A program made the position numbers. Positions 6,001 to 45,000 of a stretch of 64,000 nt of DNA are shown piece by piece (the first letter of the stretch is position 1; each line of letters opens with the position of its first letter). This DNA is from an uncultured delta proteobacterium (GTDB lineage: Bacteria; Desulfobacterota; Zymogenia; Zymogenales; Zymogenaceae). Location: positions 704,001 to 768,000 of the forward strand of contig CAVTLK010000005.1 of the NCBI GenBank assembly GCA_963735595.1, written 5' to 3'.

Positions 6001-9000
6001 TGATGAGGTCGTTGAACTCGGTGACACCGTCCTGAAGAGAGCGGAAGCGGACCACGAAGGGCTCGTCCCGGGCGGGCAGGTCCCTGTCCCGGCAGGTGCC
6101 GTCGTACATCGGCTTTTCCTTGCGCTCCTCGGCGCGCTTGCGCTTTTCCTCGAGCAGCTCGCTGCTGCAGTAGCAGCGGTAGGCCTTCTTTTCGGCCACG
6201 AGCCGGTCGACGGCCGCGTGGTACAGGCCGTCGCGCTTGCTCTGAAACTCCGGGCCCTCGTCCCACGTTAACCCCAGCCAGGTCATGCTTGCCAGGATCG
6301 CCTCGGTATATTCGTCGCGCGACCGCTCCCGGTCGGTATCCTCGATCCTGAGGATGAAAACGCCCCCGGTGTGCCGGGCGTAGAGGTAGTTGAAGAGGGC
6401 GGTCCGGGCGCCGCCGATGTGCAGGTGGCCGGTTGGGCTCGGGGCGAACCGGACGCGTACGGGAGATTGTCTGTCTTTCACCGCTCATTCCTTCCAGAAT
6501 ATAGACGGGGCCGCCGTGGGGCCCCGGATTCCAATAGCACGTATCGTCTCATGATACGTATCATACCGCGCCCGTTTTGTCAACGCCAACGCCAACGCCA
6601 TTGCCAAGGTTTATCGCCGCCTTCACTTTTCCGCCCTCATATTCTTCATAGCGTCCGCTATTACCCGGTAGAATCGGACGTACAGATGTGGAGGTACGGA
6701 CTATGTATAAAGGGGACACCTTTTTTGCGGAGCGTAATTTCGCGGTGGATTACGAGCGGGCGCTGATGGATATGCCCGACATGGAGCTCTGGATATGGCT
6801 GATGCACCGGCGGGGATACTCCCAGGGGTACATCGGCGACAGCATCGGCGTTACCCAGTCGGACGTGGCCTATCGAATCGACCGGATACAGGACTATATA
6901 AAGCGACGGGTGAATGAAGAAGAAATGCACTGAAGAGGGGACCGGGGCCGCCCCGCCCGACGGCGGCGTCTCCCGCCGGTGACGGGGATGCCGCCGGCGC
7001 GGGGGGCGCTGACGCGGTCTTTCGGGACATCGTCAAAAAGGCCGGGGAGGGAAACATCAAGTACCAGGAGCTTTATCTCAAGTATATCGACCTCATTTCG
7101 GAAAGAAGGGACAACAAAGACGAAGTGGTTTACAAGGCGACCTTTATCGATGACGAAGATCAAGAGGCTTAAGCTGTACCGCCCCCACGCGGGCCAGAAG
7201 GCCCTGCACGAATCGGACGCCCGTTTCAGGGTGGCCGCGTGCGGCAGGAGGTGGGGAAAGACGCTGGCCGCCACGGCGGAGATGATCAGGCACGCCTGGG
7301 AAAGGCCGGGCTCTCTCTCGTTTTGGGTGGCGCCGGTGCTGCGCCAGAGCGCGATCGCCTTTGACCTGGTGAGGCGGGGGATGCCGCGGGGGACGGTGGC
7401 CGATATCCACAAGACCGACCGGAGGGTCGGCCTCGTCAACGGCTCGGTGCTCGAGTTCAGGAGCGCCGAGATCCCGGAAAACCTGCGGGGGTTCGGCATC
7501 GACTTCCTGGTGGTGGACGAGGCGGCCTTTCTCTCGAAGGACCTCTGGGAGGAGGTCCTGAGGCCGGCGCTTTCGGACCGGCAGGGCAAGGCGCTCTTTG
7601 TGGGCACGCCCAAGGGGAAGAACTGGTTTTTCCGCCTCTTTTCCCGTGGGATGGACAGCGAGCAGGCGGGCTGGCAGTCCTTCACCTTTCCCACCGAAAA
7701 TAACCCGTACATACGCCCGGAAGAGATCGAAGACGCGCGGCGGACCCTGCCCGAGGCGGTCTTCGCCCAGGAGTACCTGGCCCGCTTTGTCGACGACGGG
7801 GCGGGCGTCTTCTCGGGGGTCAACGACATCATCACGGGGAAACTGGCCGACCCGCTGCCCGGCGGACGGTATACGGCTGGACTGGATATCGGCAGGCACC
7901 GGGACTACACGGTGCTGACGATTGTCGACGGCAGGGGGTCGGTCGTCTACTTTGACCGCTTTTCCGGGACGACCTGGACGGCGATGAAACGGCGGGTGGC
8001 CTCGGCAATCAGGCGGTACAACCGGGCCGTCGCCTGGGTCGATTCCACCGGCGTGGGCGATCCGATCCTCGAAGACCTGATACGAATGGGCGCGGCCTGC
8101 CGGGGTTTCCGATTCACCAACGAATCAAAGTCGGCGCTCATCGAAAACCTTGTCCTCCTGATCGACGAGCGGAAGATCGGTATCCCCCCGATACAGGAGC
8201 TTATCGATGAGCTGGTGATGTTCGAGCTGAAAAACCTCCCGGGAGGCGGCGTCTCATACGGGGCGCCGGGGGGCTTCCATGACGACTGTGTCATATCGCT
8301 GGCCCTCGCCGCGTGGGGGATCAGGGGGATCAGGGTGAGCCAGTCGGACTTTGGACAAACGCTTGGTTTTTGATGAAAGGAGCCGGTATGGATGCCGAAG
8401 TGCGGTTTACGGACGGAGAGACGCGGTCCTTCTTAAACGTGAGGTCAATAGACGTTCGCGACGGTGCGGTCATTGTCCGGCGGTGGGTCAGGGTCGTCGC
8501 GATACTGCCGATGGATACGATCCGCTGGGCGACGCTCGTCAGGCGCCGGAAGGTCTCACAGGACGACTTTGGGAAGGCCGCCCTGTAGGGGTTCGGGCCT
8601 TCCCGCGGTTGCGGCCGGTTTACCGGCACGGCCCGCGAAAGGGAATCATATGAACAAAAACGACATGAAGCTCTTTCTTAACTATTACGACGGCTGCCGG
8701 GAGGCGATCTTCAAAGATTTCACGGTCCGCCGGGTCGCCGAAGGTCTGCCGAAAGAGCAGCGGATATCAATCAGGGACTTCTATTTTCAAAACGACATCC
8801 GGGTCATCCAGGACACGAGGGCGAACTTTATGCCGCCGACCTTCGACGTTGTCGTGACCAGGAGGGGCGAGACCGCGCCCCACGACGGGCTGACCGGCGA
8901 GGTAACGGCGTGGCTGAAGTCCCGCAACTTCGGCGGCGGCCGCACCTTCTGGGAGGCGCTGCCCGGCTACTACCTGACACAGGAGAACTACGGCACGCTC

Positions 9001-42000: not shown

Positions 42001-45000
42001 AATCAGGTATCTCTCCGGGGATAAGAGACAGGCGGAGATCGCGGGGAAAACTACAAAGATCGGAGCAACGACAACAAGGATGGTGTACCGATGACAGACG
42101 GAAACGGGATAACGGCGGCAGAATTTAGGGGCAAGATGCTTGAACGGACAGAGGACATACTGCGGCGCATCACCGACCTCGAAAAAAAGGTTGATTGTCA
42201 CGTCGTCGATCTCGCCATGCTCAAAGTCAAGGCGGGGATGTGGGGATTTCTGGCCGGGGCAGTCCCCTCTCTTGCGGCCCTGCTCGTAATGATATTCAAG
42301 GATTAGCCATGAAGATGCGAGATGAAGATTGGCAGCTGGTTAAATATTTCGAGGCACAGGAATTTTCCCCGAGTCCCCACATGATGGAGCAGTCGATTGT
42401 TTTTCTGATCGATACGATACGCGACCTCTATTGCTCACCAATCAATATCACGTCGGCGTGGAGTCCGGGGACCGGGCACTCGGCAACATCACAACACTAC
42501 GTCGGCAAAGCCGTTGACTTCTGGATCGAAGGGATACCATTCAAAGATGCCGTGGGCCTGATGGAGGATTTTTTGAGCGCACCGCCTCGCGGGATAGGTG
42601 AATGGGATAAGGTAGGGCTCGGGATATACCCTCATTGGCTGCACCCGGGATTCCATCTTGATACCCGGGGAGCGATGGCCCGCTGGGGCGCAGTAACACG
42701 GATGGGAAAGCAGGTTTATGTATCATGGGATAACGCAAACAAGGCGGTAGTATGAAGATTTGGGAGGCTATCGGAGGGCGCAAGTTCCTGGCACTCACGC
42801 TGGCGTGTATAGTGTACGTCTGGACGGGTCGATTTGATTTCAACCTCGCGCTCATCTTTGCCGCGTATATGGGTGCAAACGTTTTGACTAAGTTAGTTAA
42901 TGGGAAGAAGGAGAAAGAGGTTGAGGTTAAATATGATACTCACTAAAAAGAGGATCCTCTTTGTTAGCATTATCATAGCCCTTTGGGCGCTAATAATGCT
43001 CTGGGGCATTCACAGGTACCGGGAAGACGCACTGACGGAAAAGCAGGTTTCCACCCGGAGCCTTCAGGCTCAGGAACGGGTAACACGAGAGTATATTCCC
43101 ACGAAATTGAAGGAAAAGGACTCTGATGAACTAACAAGGATAGGGGTAAACCTATGGGGAGAATAAACAAACTTACTTATTCTATGTCTGGAATGGCTGT
43201 AATATTGAGTAGCCTGATCTGCCTGTTAGTGATAGCAGGTGGATGTTCCACCGCGTCATGGATAATTCATCACAACGGCTCAGGCGATGATCTTCTTATT
43301 AACGAGGCCGACGTGGATGCAATGATTACTGAATTGTCGCTGGTACAGCCAGTAGACTCGGAAACCATACTCCATAACGAAACCACGGATCGATATGAGC
43401 TCACGCCGGATGCCTACAGGAAAGCGATAAGGGACGGGATTATCAGGAGGATTCAGGATAGTAAGATCAGCGCATTTCTTGAGAGCTACCGTCGCGAGAG
43501 TTTTGCCGACGCCCTAAGGAAAGATATGGGCACGGTCGGGACTATTATCCTGTTCCTCGGGATCCTCGGCGGCCTGTTCTATTAAAAAGGCGCGGTAACA
43601 ACCGCGCCGTTGAATTATTGTATAGTGGCCGTCAAAAGGTAATCAATCACTTACCATGAGCGTCAGCTTTTCGATGATCGGTGGGTCCTCCGTATCGATT
43701 ACCTGAACCATCTCTTTATACATTCGCCTCTTCATCTCGGCAAATATACCGCGTTTCTTCTGATAGGTTCCCGCTAAGGCCATCGCCTCGGCAATCAGCG
43801 TCTCTTGGTTTTCACAGGCCTTGACAATGACATGATGCGCCTCGAGCTCCGCCGCGCCATAGCGCTTGCCGGAAAGGAGCATTTCGTTGAATTTATACTC
43901 AGGGATGGCCTTCCTGCTGAAGGCGACCATCCCCGGCAAAAACGGGATGCCGATATCGATCTCGGGAAAAAAGAAAAAGCCTCTATCGGCGCGCATGAAG
44001 CGAAAATCGCAGGCGCATGACAGGATCGCCCCGTTGGCTACCGCATGGCCGTTGATTGCAGCGATCACCGGCATCGGGTAGGTTAAGAGCCTCTTGAATA
44101 CCCCGTTGATCCCGTACAGGAACTCCTTGATCTGTTTCGTCTCGTTTTTTCCCATTCGCTCCGTCAACCAGGTAAGGTCGATGCCCTGAGACCAGTTCTT
44201 TGGATCACTGCTGGTGATAACGACCGACGAAAGCTCCTTATCTTTTTCGATGGCGTCCAACGCGGTGGACATATCGGCAACGAAGACGGCGTTGTGGCGG
44301 TTTTCCCCGTTAGTCATCGTGACGACGGCGACGGTCCCTTGTTTCTTCCATTCTACGACAGACATCGATTCCTCCTCGGGTATTCGGGTTGGAGTATAGT
44401 ATGAGGTATTGTGTGTCTTCTGTAATGTGTAAGTATAGATAAGTGATTCGTTTGTGTCAAGGCAAATGAAGGTATGAGATGGTCGTTTCGGATAAGTGGG
44501 AAGCGATGAATTCAATTAAGTTCCTTTAATATGAATACATTTTGTATATGAGACTATTGCAGAACGTCGAGAAGGGGTGTATATACGTTAGTACCGTAAG
44601 GATTTTGTCTGTCCTGACCGCGCGTTTTTTATATCGAGCCCCTTCATGAGGGGCGTTTTAGCGTGAGGCGATTTCATGCTTAGGAAGTATAACGTAGTCG
44701 GCGGCAAATTGGCGGAGACGCAGGAGAATGACGCCCTCCTATTTATCTACATCAATCCCGATGAGAGCGAAAAGAAGCACCTTATTGATGATCTTAAGCT
44801 CGACGAGCATACCCTCGGTTCTGCACTGGACCCTGATGAACTGGCCCGCCTCGAATTCGAGCCCAGGCATACCGCCATCATTTTCAAGCGGCCCGAGCCC
44901 TATAGCCATAAGGACGAGTTCCTATTCAGAATCGCCTCCACCGGCGCCTATCTCTTCAAAGATCGGCTCGTGATCGTGATATCGGAAGATGTTCCGCTGC

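Follow-up and report, generated by a model that had tools for sequence, protein, structure and literature searches.

In the window analysed here, a stretch of 64,000 nucleotides, siphophage genes are distributed over three operons and a regulator pair that lie scattered among host genes and span 37 kb; in relatives the parts sit on separate contigs or wider apart. The set is vertically inherited and kept by its hosts, uncultured sediment bacteria that we sampled through 10 genomes, all metagenome-assembled and several fragmented. A first-pass annotation had called the set class-wide; these 10 genomes of class Zymogenia represent one family with 5 genera. The positions it gave for TerL, portal, scaffold, capsid, tail tube, hub and endolysin, with purF, purB and other host genes in between, hold, as does the absence of integrase and replication genes (no such family among 64 ORFs scanned). 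The packaging operon comprises:

6703..6933, + strand: HTH1, 76 aa, sigma-70 region-4-like HTH protein, candidate activator (phrog_1190, E 0.004; 9/10 genomes)
6914..7172, + strand: predicted small terminase (TerS) without N-terminal HTH (spread over two frames in this assembly; 8 relatives have it intact)
7150..8373, + strand: large terminase (TerL), 407 aa, ATPase and nuclease motifs intact (PF03237/PF17289, phrog_2)
8388..8588, + strand: conserved ORF of 66 aa separating TerL from portal (the G007 prophage has a weak homologue)
8650..9897, + strand: SPP1-like portal, 415 aa (PF05133 below cut-off, phrog_104/64; 9/10 genomes)

The nearest solved relatives of TerL are 4zni and 5m1f. No clear small terminase had been recognised at first; the ORF before TerL, previously missed, aligns with a PF13022-type small terminase over that protein's C-terminal half (hhalign 97.8%, E 1e-12). 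PF13022 is carried by 12 of its next 16 matches, and the remnant is present in 9 of 9 carriers. Among 68 close relatives the HTH occurs in none (0/68) and the C-terminal helices in all (68/68), while the N-terminus measures 9-101 aa, with large hydrophobic residues at 11% vs 28%. As predicted from sequence, then, the N-terminal HTH is gone and the C-terminal helices are kept. A TerS that lacks the N-terminal HTH and keeps the oligomerisation and C-terminal segments is described as a hallmark of gene transfer agents (GTAs) in PMC6854486 and again in PMC11841831, and by its description the TerS of FpGTA is likewise without a DNA-binding domain (PMC12946183). With the DNA-recognition domain predicted to be lost, random host DNA is likely to be packed.

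The head operon lies further downstream, with a host-type gene between it and the tail operon:

28882..29592, + strand: scaffold protein (phrog_2303, E 0.009, a weak match; the phage homologue matches phrog_206)
29611..30087, + strand: predicted head decoration protein, 158 aa (49-58% to the pre-capsid gene in related contigs; the phage homologue weakly matches phrog_122)
30109..31092, + strand: HK97-fold major capsid protein, 327 aa (PF25209; model pLDDT 75.6, Foldseek matches to HK97 capsids)
30352..30359, + strand: attB-like core TTCAAGAC at about codon 82 of the capsid gene, intact here
31151..31438, + strand: conserved 95-aa beta-rich protein, possibly on the head
31438..31644, + strand: predicted head-tail adaptor, 68 aa (44% to a gene of phage contig L077 at the equivalent position)
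31967..33433, + strand: secreted repeat protein, 488 aa, host-type, inserted and not phage-derived, with its own TTGACA-17-TATAAT promoter

Host genes have entered the set, and the single head-tail-lysis module of the first-pass annotation is really two operons, parted by this last gene with its own sigma-70 promoter. The capsid is the most conserved gene, and encapsulins are among its fold matches, as would suit an empty, encapsulin-like compartment with the packaging genes as passengers. The encapsulin matches, however, score no better than those to phage capsids, the TerL motifs are intact, and portal, TerS and scaffold are under selection and co-regulated, which makes such a compartment exceedingly improbable. 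The capsid gene is broken in G008, as had been noted, and also interrupted in G009 and metagenome contig L073; in all three, foreign DNA splits it at the attB-like codon, the same codon in two genera.

The tail-lysis operon, all on the + strand, contains:

34007..34348, + strand: predicted head-closure (stopper) protein (30% to an L077 gene that weakly matches phrog_501)
34387..34836, + strand: predicted tail terminator (position, and 36% to an L077 gene)
34861..35628, + strand: tail tube protein (phrog_807, E 3e-17)
35779..36171, + strand: predicted distal-tail protein (phrog_4408, which comes after the tape measure in phages AS1 and PCA1)
36181..37650, + strand: baseplate/fibre-like protein (phrog_6128, phrog_9261)
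38152..41440, + strand: large tail-tip protein, in pieces here (phrog_6079, E 2e-10)
41451..41825, + strand: hub-like protein (phrog_177, E 5e-6)
41822..42306, + strand: two small genes, 90 and 71 aa, common to the G007 prophage
42309..42755, + strand: M15 peptidase endolysin (phrog_894, E 3e-10; PF08291)
42752..43585, + strand: 64-aa membrane protein resembling a holin, and two spanin-like genes; position and hydropathy are the only grounds for these assignments, and no family match was found

The tail-tip protein is a single ORF of 1081-1091 aa in G003, G006 and G009. Long-tailed phages need a tape measure for tail building and DNA delivery. As in the earlier searches, neither a chaperone nor a tape measure was found in the set, the latter now by five routes, and neck-1 and minor-head genes were not found either; gap analysis places no chaperone or tape-measure gene after the tail tube. 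This is a real gap in a GTA reading. Given the genes not found, we predict either a short stub, made up of adaptor, stopper and terminator, a small number of tube rings and the distal and tip proteins, or a tail completed by a resident prophage.

Expression of the three operons appears to be coordinated by a shared promoter and a divergent regulator pair:

6637..6674, + strand: shared promoter, copy 1, ahead of the packaging operon (TCATA-N3-xYxAT-N18-21-TANAAT)
28812..28849, + strand: copy 2, ahead of the head operon
33789..33826, + strand: copy 3, ahead of the tail-lysis operon
24812..25066, - strand: HTH2, 84 aa, HTH1 paralogue, candidate master activator (PRK06930, E 4e-4, below cut-off)
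25067..25272, no strand: divergent control region with 2-3 conserved GTTGAC-N5-GTCAAC-like operator repeats overlapping the -35 boxes
25273..25821, + strand: predicted XRE-family repressor, divergent from HTH2 in 9/9 carriers

The promoter pattern, which like the operator pattern was derived from the very sites on which it was scored, has 4 matches in 3.63 Mb, 3 of them at operon starts. Across 21 relatives' loci every match (14/14) falls at an operon start, and none occurs in 4 phage loci; the pattern is also lacking from the examined stretches of L077, L086 and the G007 prophage. Ahead of the tail operon it was not found in G005, G006 and G009. When other genomes' head-operon sites are the only training set, a model puts the packaging site at genome-wide rank 4 and the tail site at rank 6; with training limited to packaging sites, the remaining two come no higher than 42nd and 49th. 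PRK06930 is a positive-control sigma-like factor, to which the HTH2 match is weak; the XRE transcript is predicted to be leaderless, and no peptidase S24 domain was found in the repressor. By analogy with the Xre/Xpf logic of PBSX, we infer that XRE may bind the operator-like repeats, and HTH1 and HTH2 the promoter motif.

The Xre and sigma-like-factor layout is also what one would meet in a PBSX-like particle, which would pack host DNA without delivering it and be kept for killing, adhesion, as a decoy or for DNA release. The rapid change of tail-tip and lysis genes would fit, as would the failure to find any of the genes linked to DNA injection. However, PBSX kills by means of a contractile tail, and here no sheath family scores above cut-off among the tail ORFs, which argues against such a tail; Pfam, PHROG and Atlas searches returned no toxin or enzyme family for the tail-tip protein, and conservation is strongest on capsid, portal and TerL, not on the tail. 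We consider a particle of this kind unlikely.

Packaging and head genes evolve at dN/dS 0.03-0.33 in all but one short fragment (capsid 0.03-0.07, HTH1 0.10-0.26), and their dS is host-like (0.24-0.53 vs 0.34-0.62 for host genes, G007-G009). The host tree is not rejected for concatenated TerL, portal, capsid, TerS and the small gene (AU p 0.12, 8 taxa), two genus-breaking trees are rejected (p<1e-55), and patristic distances of phage-derived and host genes correlate at r 0.95 (8 taxa). The dN/dS values, dS parity and tree congruence reported earlier could be reproduced using rpoB, purF, purB, gltX and lytR instead of DnaB. Distal tail and lysis genes deviate from this pattern of vertical descent and co-diversification; their higher dS, already noticed, amounts to 0.50-1.11 vs 0.12-0.36 for host genes (G000-G005). 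Capsid and portal are indeed single-copy, each in 9/10 genomes at one locus. The tenth genome, G001, whose lack of the set had been noted as a point against, is also without purF, lytR and the neighbouring gltX copy, so that its missing capsid and portal probably reflect an assembly gap. The packaging operon lies beside gltX in 7/8 relatives, not in all as first thought, the exception being G008. For the tail tube the earlier 8/10 included the prophage copy of G007; the host-borne tail module is present in 7/10. G007, 99% complete, carries head, packaging genes and regulators and, as reported before, no host tail or lysis module.

Lost or patchy tail genes, a capsid interrupted in three records, and the frameshifts in TerS and the tail tip in this window might point to a defective prophage in slow decay at an old insertion site, its low dN/dS a remnant of its phage past. 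Yet the same assemblies also break gltX, purF, purB and rpoB, the TerS and tail-tip ORFs are whole in G003, G006 and G009, and behind the inserted host gene the tail operon has a promoter copy of its own, either gained or retained. Moreover, dN/dS is low on recent branches too (G000-G005, G007-G009), and dS is saturated between genera; this recent selection largely refutes decay, which we regard as very unlikely. Domestication found support in every test: inheritance is vertical, selection purifying and dS host-like, the loci are split, and replication and integration genes have been lost.

The nearest relatives outside the family are ordinary replicating phages. The capsid had been reported as not found in viral contigs or in 391 other Desulfobacterota, but 12 viral contigs match at 29-40% and 8 of the 391 give weak partial matches (E 6e-16 to 6e-4). 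The family capsids form one clade (0.97), sister to two phage-like metagenome contigs, L077 (62%) and L086 (56%), which share the head gene order, the portal (47/50%) and, in L086, TerL (50%). These phages and the G007 prophage, by contrast, keep replication genes (DnaC/DnaD-like in the phages, which also have NinG), a TerS with HTH and minor-head genes, and both L077 and the G007 prophage have neck-1, chaperone and tape measure. The prophage has the same tube-to-lysis block (tube 43%, tip 36% identical), including the chaperone and a 275-aa tape measure. A functional or recent prophage was rejected as an identity for the set itself: there is no contiguous block, no integrase or replication family among the 64 ORFs scanned, and no TerS predicted to recognise pac.

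That G007 lacks the host tail module and holds a prophage with a homologous tail-lysis block invites the idea of a helper-dependent host transducer, whose heads would be completed by an infecting or resident phage, which supplies its tape measure, its chaperones or entire tails, as capsid-forming PICIs (cf-PICIs) do, or whose tape-less tail parts would jam that phage's assembly. Against it, the set carries a repressor-activator switch and lysis genes of its own, only 1/10 genomes holds the prophage tape measure, the prophage tube falls outside the host clade (support just 60), and, unlike in cf-PICIs, integrase and replication genes are lacking; helper dependence thus seems to us quite unlikely.

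We therefore favour a GTA-like particle under host control, its tail either a stub or borrowed; this is probably, though by no means assuredly, what these genes encode. In this GTA-like scheme, the XRE repressor would hold the sigma-region-4-like activator off; relief of this repression would let the activator turn on the three operons together, and the predicted HTH-less small terminase would let TerL pack random headfuls of host DNA before the cell lyses. The stub tail might then dock on another cell, with the recipient's ComEC system left to take up the DNA, or the tail might be completed by a resident prophage. ComEC is present in 5/5 genomes tested and offers weak support, as it is common in controls as well (10/14). 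Headful packaging and particle assembly are inferred, and delivery to other cells would be the least certain step. The predicted small terminase, promoter and regulator features support and strengthen the GTA reading. More specifically, and as a tentative possibility, this could be an independently domesticated GTA that has lost the whole DNA-injection set of its siphophage ancestor (tape measure, chaperone, neck-1, minor head) and retains tube and tip, transferring DNA via a tape-less stub tail and recipient competence under a phage-style repressor and region-4-only activator, gated in some lineages by an excisable element in the capsid gene. New here are the predicted HTH-less small terminase, the promoter shared by three operons, the XRE/HTH2 pair across its repeats and the capsid-splitting element.

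Few GTAs are known, and most came to light by chance. The present candidate stems from a different phage lineage, and with phage relatives in hand the steps of its taming can be read: the replication genes went, the set was split, the operons came under a common promoter, and the DNA-binding domain of TerS eroded into disordered stretches that vary in length. The candidate would be one more independent instance of the change in the terminase that has been proposed as the cause of random packaging, and it provides a usable search signature. Should a tail of tube and tip function with no tape measure, it would represent a novel mode of building or using a phage tail.

Finally, how does the set compare with known systems? 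Membership of the RcGTA family (Rhodogtaviriformidae) was rejected: the capsid fold match to 6tb9 ranks 12th at 13% identity, a scaffold replaces the protease, and no tape measure was found, whereas the RcGTA cluster has both protease and tape measure. Capsid-forming PICIs (cf-PICIs) are mobile, integrate, replicate, pack themselves and borrow their tails from phage. That identity, too, was rejected, as there are no integrase or replication genes among the 64 ORFs scanned and no mobile island; mobility, integration, replication and self-packaging are not seen here, and the likeness, by their description, is a set that has head and packaging genes of its own but lacks a complete tail (bioRxiv 10.1101/2025.02.11.637232). 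Viriform GTAs are defined in PMC9662315 by Caudoviricete-derived particle proteins, mostly random packaging of host DNA, full endogenisation often over several loci, inability to package their own whole gene set, vertical inheritance and delivery of the packaged DNA to other cells; RcGTA, BaGTA and BhGTA/VSH-1 are examples, as are Dd1 and VTA (PMC9662315, PMC6854486, PMC11841831). In the present set we find Caudoviricete-derived particle proteins, full endogenisation over several loci, and vertical inheritance with co-diversification. As in the ICTV-recognised GTAs, the genes are fixed in the chromosome, with a predicted HTH-less TerS and host-style regulation; the set differs in having a phage ancestor of its own (PF25209 capsid, SPP1-like portal and scaffold, PF13022-type TerS). 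In Bacillus subtilis, PBSX is described as killing related strains and as packaging random DNA of 13 kb, its terminase and structural genes being governed by an XRE repressor together with a positive factor of sigma-like type (PMC8347963). A likeness may lie in that regulatory layout and in random host packaging, which is predicted here; PBSX, though, is one block of about 33 kb with bactericidal particles, as opposed to three operons, region-4-only activators of 76-84 aa and non-contractile tail genes. FpGTA of Faecalibacterium, by its description, has a two-locus layout, a portal-scaffold-capsid head, a second tail/lysis operon absent in some carriers, and particles without visible tail (PMC12946183). 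The two-locus layout, the TerS without DNA-binding domain, the head order and the tail/lysis operon missing in some carriers are alike, whereas FpGTA is described as podovirus-like and belongs to another phylum, and the set described here carries siphophage tube, terminator and distal-tail genes.

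Pfam and PHROG scans of window ORFs (64 and 28, respectively) recovered the phage-type genes listed by the first-pass annotation: the large terminase TerL, an SPP1-like portal, a PF25209 capsid, the tail tube, the hub and an M15 endolysin. They also placed the host genes purF, purB, lytR, gmrSD and a nitroreductase gene between them, with no match to integrase or replication families. The capsid is modeled with an HK97 fold, TerL retains its ATPase and nuclease motifs, and the solved terminases nearest to TerL are 4zni and 5m1f, which we take to be terminases of headful packagers. 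We find it barely credible that the product is an empty capsid compartment. Two genes are frameshifted in the window, those for the small terminase and the tail tip. Comparable frameshifts occur in the host genes gltX (in this assembly) and purF, purB and rpoB (in G004/G005), and the tip is a single ORF of 1081-1091 aa in G003, G006 and G009; an Atlas search gave no nameable family for it.

That the set has been domesticated, as the earlier reading held, is well supported by the inheritance and selection data, and we consider it very probable. Our class sample comprises 10 genomes from one family and five genera, and capsid and portal were each found in nine, at one locus each. Neither was found in G001, in keeping with the reported absence; however, this region is probably unassembled there, since purF and lytR were not found either and, of the two types of gltX, it has just the weaker one. 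The count of eight tail tubes in 10 genomes holds, but the G007 copy is borne by a prophage with a different head, and as no tail terminator was found in G007, whose host tail module had already been reported missing, the host tail module is present in 7/10. Packaging genes adjoin gltX in seven of eight relatives rather than in every one, and the nitroreductase gene adjoins the head operon in all six relatives whose contig extends far enough. Among the 391 Desulfobacterota sampled outside the family, where the capsid had been reported as not found, 8 show capsid matches, all of them weak and partial. The G007 prophage itself (L126-L127, G007:C16) is a 37-kb contig combining a classical HK97-type head with the tail-lysis block that the host set also carries; its tape measure is very short (275 aa), and a small secreted protein that it encodes (L126:4194-4763) matches the G000 chromosome seven times.

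Pairwise Nei-Gojobori dN/dS was calculated after removal of frameshifted copies and those covered below 55%. Packaging and head genes lie at 0.03-0.33, apart from a single fragment of 55 codons (0.73), and tail and lysis genes at 0.04-0.34. As previously noted, dS of packaging and head genes is host-like: 0.24-0.53 versus 0.34-0.62 for host genes among G007-G009, and mostly 0.10-0.18 versus 0.12-0.36 for G000-G005. The higher dS of the distal tail and lysis genes was likewise borne out (0.50-1.11, G000 versus G005) and is a sign of exchange. Tests on the concatenated phage-derived genes of eight taxa do not reject the host topology (AU p 0.12) and do reject two genus-breaking trees; the patristic distances of these genes follow those of the host (r 0.95, Spearman 0.77). 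Placed next to these ratios, and next to frameshifts of a kind found in host genes too, a decaying prophage seems very improbable to us.

In the capsid tree the family forms a single clade, whose sisters are the metagenome contigs L077 and L086. Both are ordinary phages: they encode DnaC/DnaD-like and NinG proteins, have a full small terminase and carry minor-head genes. L077 additionally carries neck-1, chaperone-position and tape-measure genes. Directly behind their capsid genes (L077:12045-17064, L086:11043-20935) lies a long sugar-modifying block, epimerase- and glycosyltransferase-like by labels given mostly by eye, which is missing from the host set and suggests a glycosylated virion. 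The first tail-gene trees were rooted on the G007 prophage by choice and so do not test placement; outgroup-rooted repeats of two of them gave a support of 60 for the tube and no resolution for the distal gene.

The capsid of G008 had been described as broken beside an integrase, and AT-rich DNA with a tyrosine integrase gene indeed lies upstream. In G008, G009, the matching contigs L071 and L072, and L073, a contig similar to the G006 genus, the capsid gene starts abruptly at one core near codon 80 with AT-rich DNA upstream; what remains of the gene is free of stops, with a dN/dS of 0.03-0.07. Integrative elements target the capsid gene in two genera (L052:123-1382; L051, L071, L072, L073). 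Searches of the class and of viral contigs turned up no close relative of the G008 integrase, and neither G008 nor G009 yielded the left half (left junction) of the head operon with the interrupted gene. The pattern fits a reversible insertion at what would be a long-lived chromosomal target.

Host genes lie within and beside the set. In five genomes (G000, G003, G004, G005 and G006) a host-type gene stands between the head operon and the tail operon; in the window it is the following feature:

31967-33433, secreted 488-aa protein with four internal repeats, between the head and tail operons, with its own sigma-70 promoter

This protein is fixed at that position in 3/3 other genomes of genus g1 and in G006, with a dN/dS of 0.06-0.10 and no family match. 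Conserved in g1 are also three membrane proteins that carry MJ0042-type zinc ribbons (9912-11847 and 21239-21931); the genes for two of them immediately follow the portal gene and share its strand. A 1180-aa protein with eight PAS domains (13039-16581) has an apparently frameshifted end. Elsewhere in G000, C4:1-75000 (L140) has a GC content of 0.42-0.48 versus 0.56-0.58 for the genome and encodes GldK and GldL above cut-offs; it probably stems from Bacteroidota DNA merged into the contig, or from a large transfer.

How might the three operons be expressed? They share a motif, TCATA-N3-xYxAT, 18-21 bases and TANAAT, which takes the place of a -35 box, at 6637 (packaging), 28812 (head) and 33789 (tail). 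The seed pattern precedes 7/9 packaging, 9/9 head and 3/6 tail operons. For the refined pattern there are four sites in the 3.63-Mb genome, 14 across 21 relatives' loci, each of these 14 at an operon start, and none in four phage loci. Because the pattern had been derived from the same sites, we ran held-out models: with head sites of other genomes the packaging site ranks 4th and the tail site 6th; with other genera the three sites rank 1st, 10th and 21st; with packaging sites alone, 6th, 42nd and 49th. Further promoter-like sites at C4:294442, C5:925141, C4:9831, C1:263901 and C2:748887 have no phage structural genes downstream, and an ordinary sigma-70 promoter overlaps the C2 site. A second sigma-region-4-like gene, HTH2, is divergent from an XRE repressor gene in 9/9 carriers, and between them lie two to three GTTGAC-N5-GTCAAC-like repeats, against an expectation of 0.001 per 330 bases. 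In g1 the restriction gene gmrSD (25978-27660) lies between this regulator pair and the head operon. Half of the X15 metatranscriptome gave short contigs, mostly below 95% alike and with no DNA control, on capsid, tail, hub and also gmrSD, which speaks neither for nor against expression. The regulator layout resembles the Xre/Xpf logic of PBSX as described in the available part of PMC8347963, and by this analogy the pair would bind DNA in an Xre/Xpf-type system.

The first-pass annotation saw no clear small terminase, a statement we revise: an ORF with a conserved helical C-terminal segment lies between HTH1 and TerL in 9/9 carriers. Its profile finds 68 close relatives, none with a Pfam family, then 16 proteins, 12 of them with PF13022, which we take to be the phBC6A51-type TerS; these align with two phage proteins called small terminases by PHROGs. 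Profile-profile comparison (hhalign) gave 97.8% across 33 columns of the C-terminal helices, and a non-significant 8% against only the two phage TerS; an Atlas search with the remnant found no nameable family. The C-terminal-helix HMM matched 68/68 relatives and the N-terminal HTH HMM 0/68, and the N-terminus (measured in 61/68) is 9-101 aa long and rich in G/K/A/E/D/P.

Tape-measure, minor-head and neck-1 genes serve tail length and DNA entry. In phages of the same tail type the tape measure sits between the tube and the predicted distal-tail gene (130 aa), a gap that spans 18-640 bases in the family and, in G006, 5.6 kb filled by host-type genes. In agreement with the earlier annotation, no tape measure was found: PF10145 has no match in G000, PF20155 has three below cut-off (GldL the best), tblastn of G000 with the complete ORF sets of 25 phage loci gave no match to a tape measure, and the G007 prophage tape measure, searched class-wide, matched only in G007. 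A composition screen calibrated on seven tape measures passed 0/3669 ATG ORFs of at least 170 aa, and an earlier uncalibrated one also passed none. We call the gene not found rather than absent because G000 is 93% complete and contains frameshifts. Nor did G000 give a match to the minor-head and neck-1 genes that L077 carries. An ORF of 100-114 aa behind the tube in G009 (L128:4449-4793) and G002 (L043), missing in G000, has similar C-termini (E 1e-5) and no likeness to two phage chaperones; it is a possible chaperone remnant. ComEC is present in 5/5 genomes tested and in 10/14 controls. We regard a PBSX-like particle that does not deliver its DNA as unlikely, and a transducer dependent on a helper as an improbable reading.

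Our best reading, favored at somewhat better than even confidence, is a GTA-like particle that would pack random host DNA and transfer it to cells. We found no published description of such a set from Zymogenia in the literature on gene transfer agents, Desulfobacterota and Zymogenia, and the word "phage" has no occurrence in the main text of the Zymogenia genome paper. Loss of the N-terminal HTH of TerS has been proposed as the cause of random packaging by RcGTA (Sherlock et al., PMC6854486, part available), and the available part of a review (PMC11841831) extends TerS domain loss to Dd1, VTA and BaGTA. All three GTA criteria checkable from sequence in the accessible portion of PMC9662315 are seen here. 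The set is not a member of the RcGTA family; like the set, FpGTA has a TerS without a DNA-recognition domain, according to the available part of PMC12946183.
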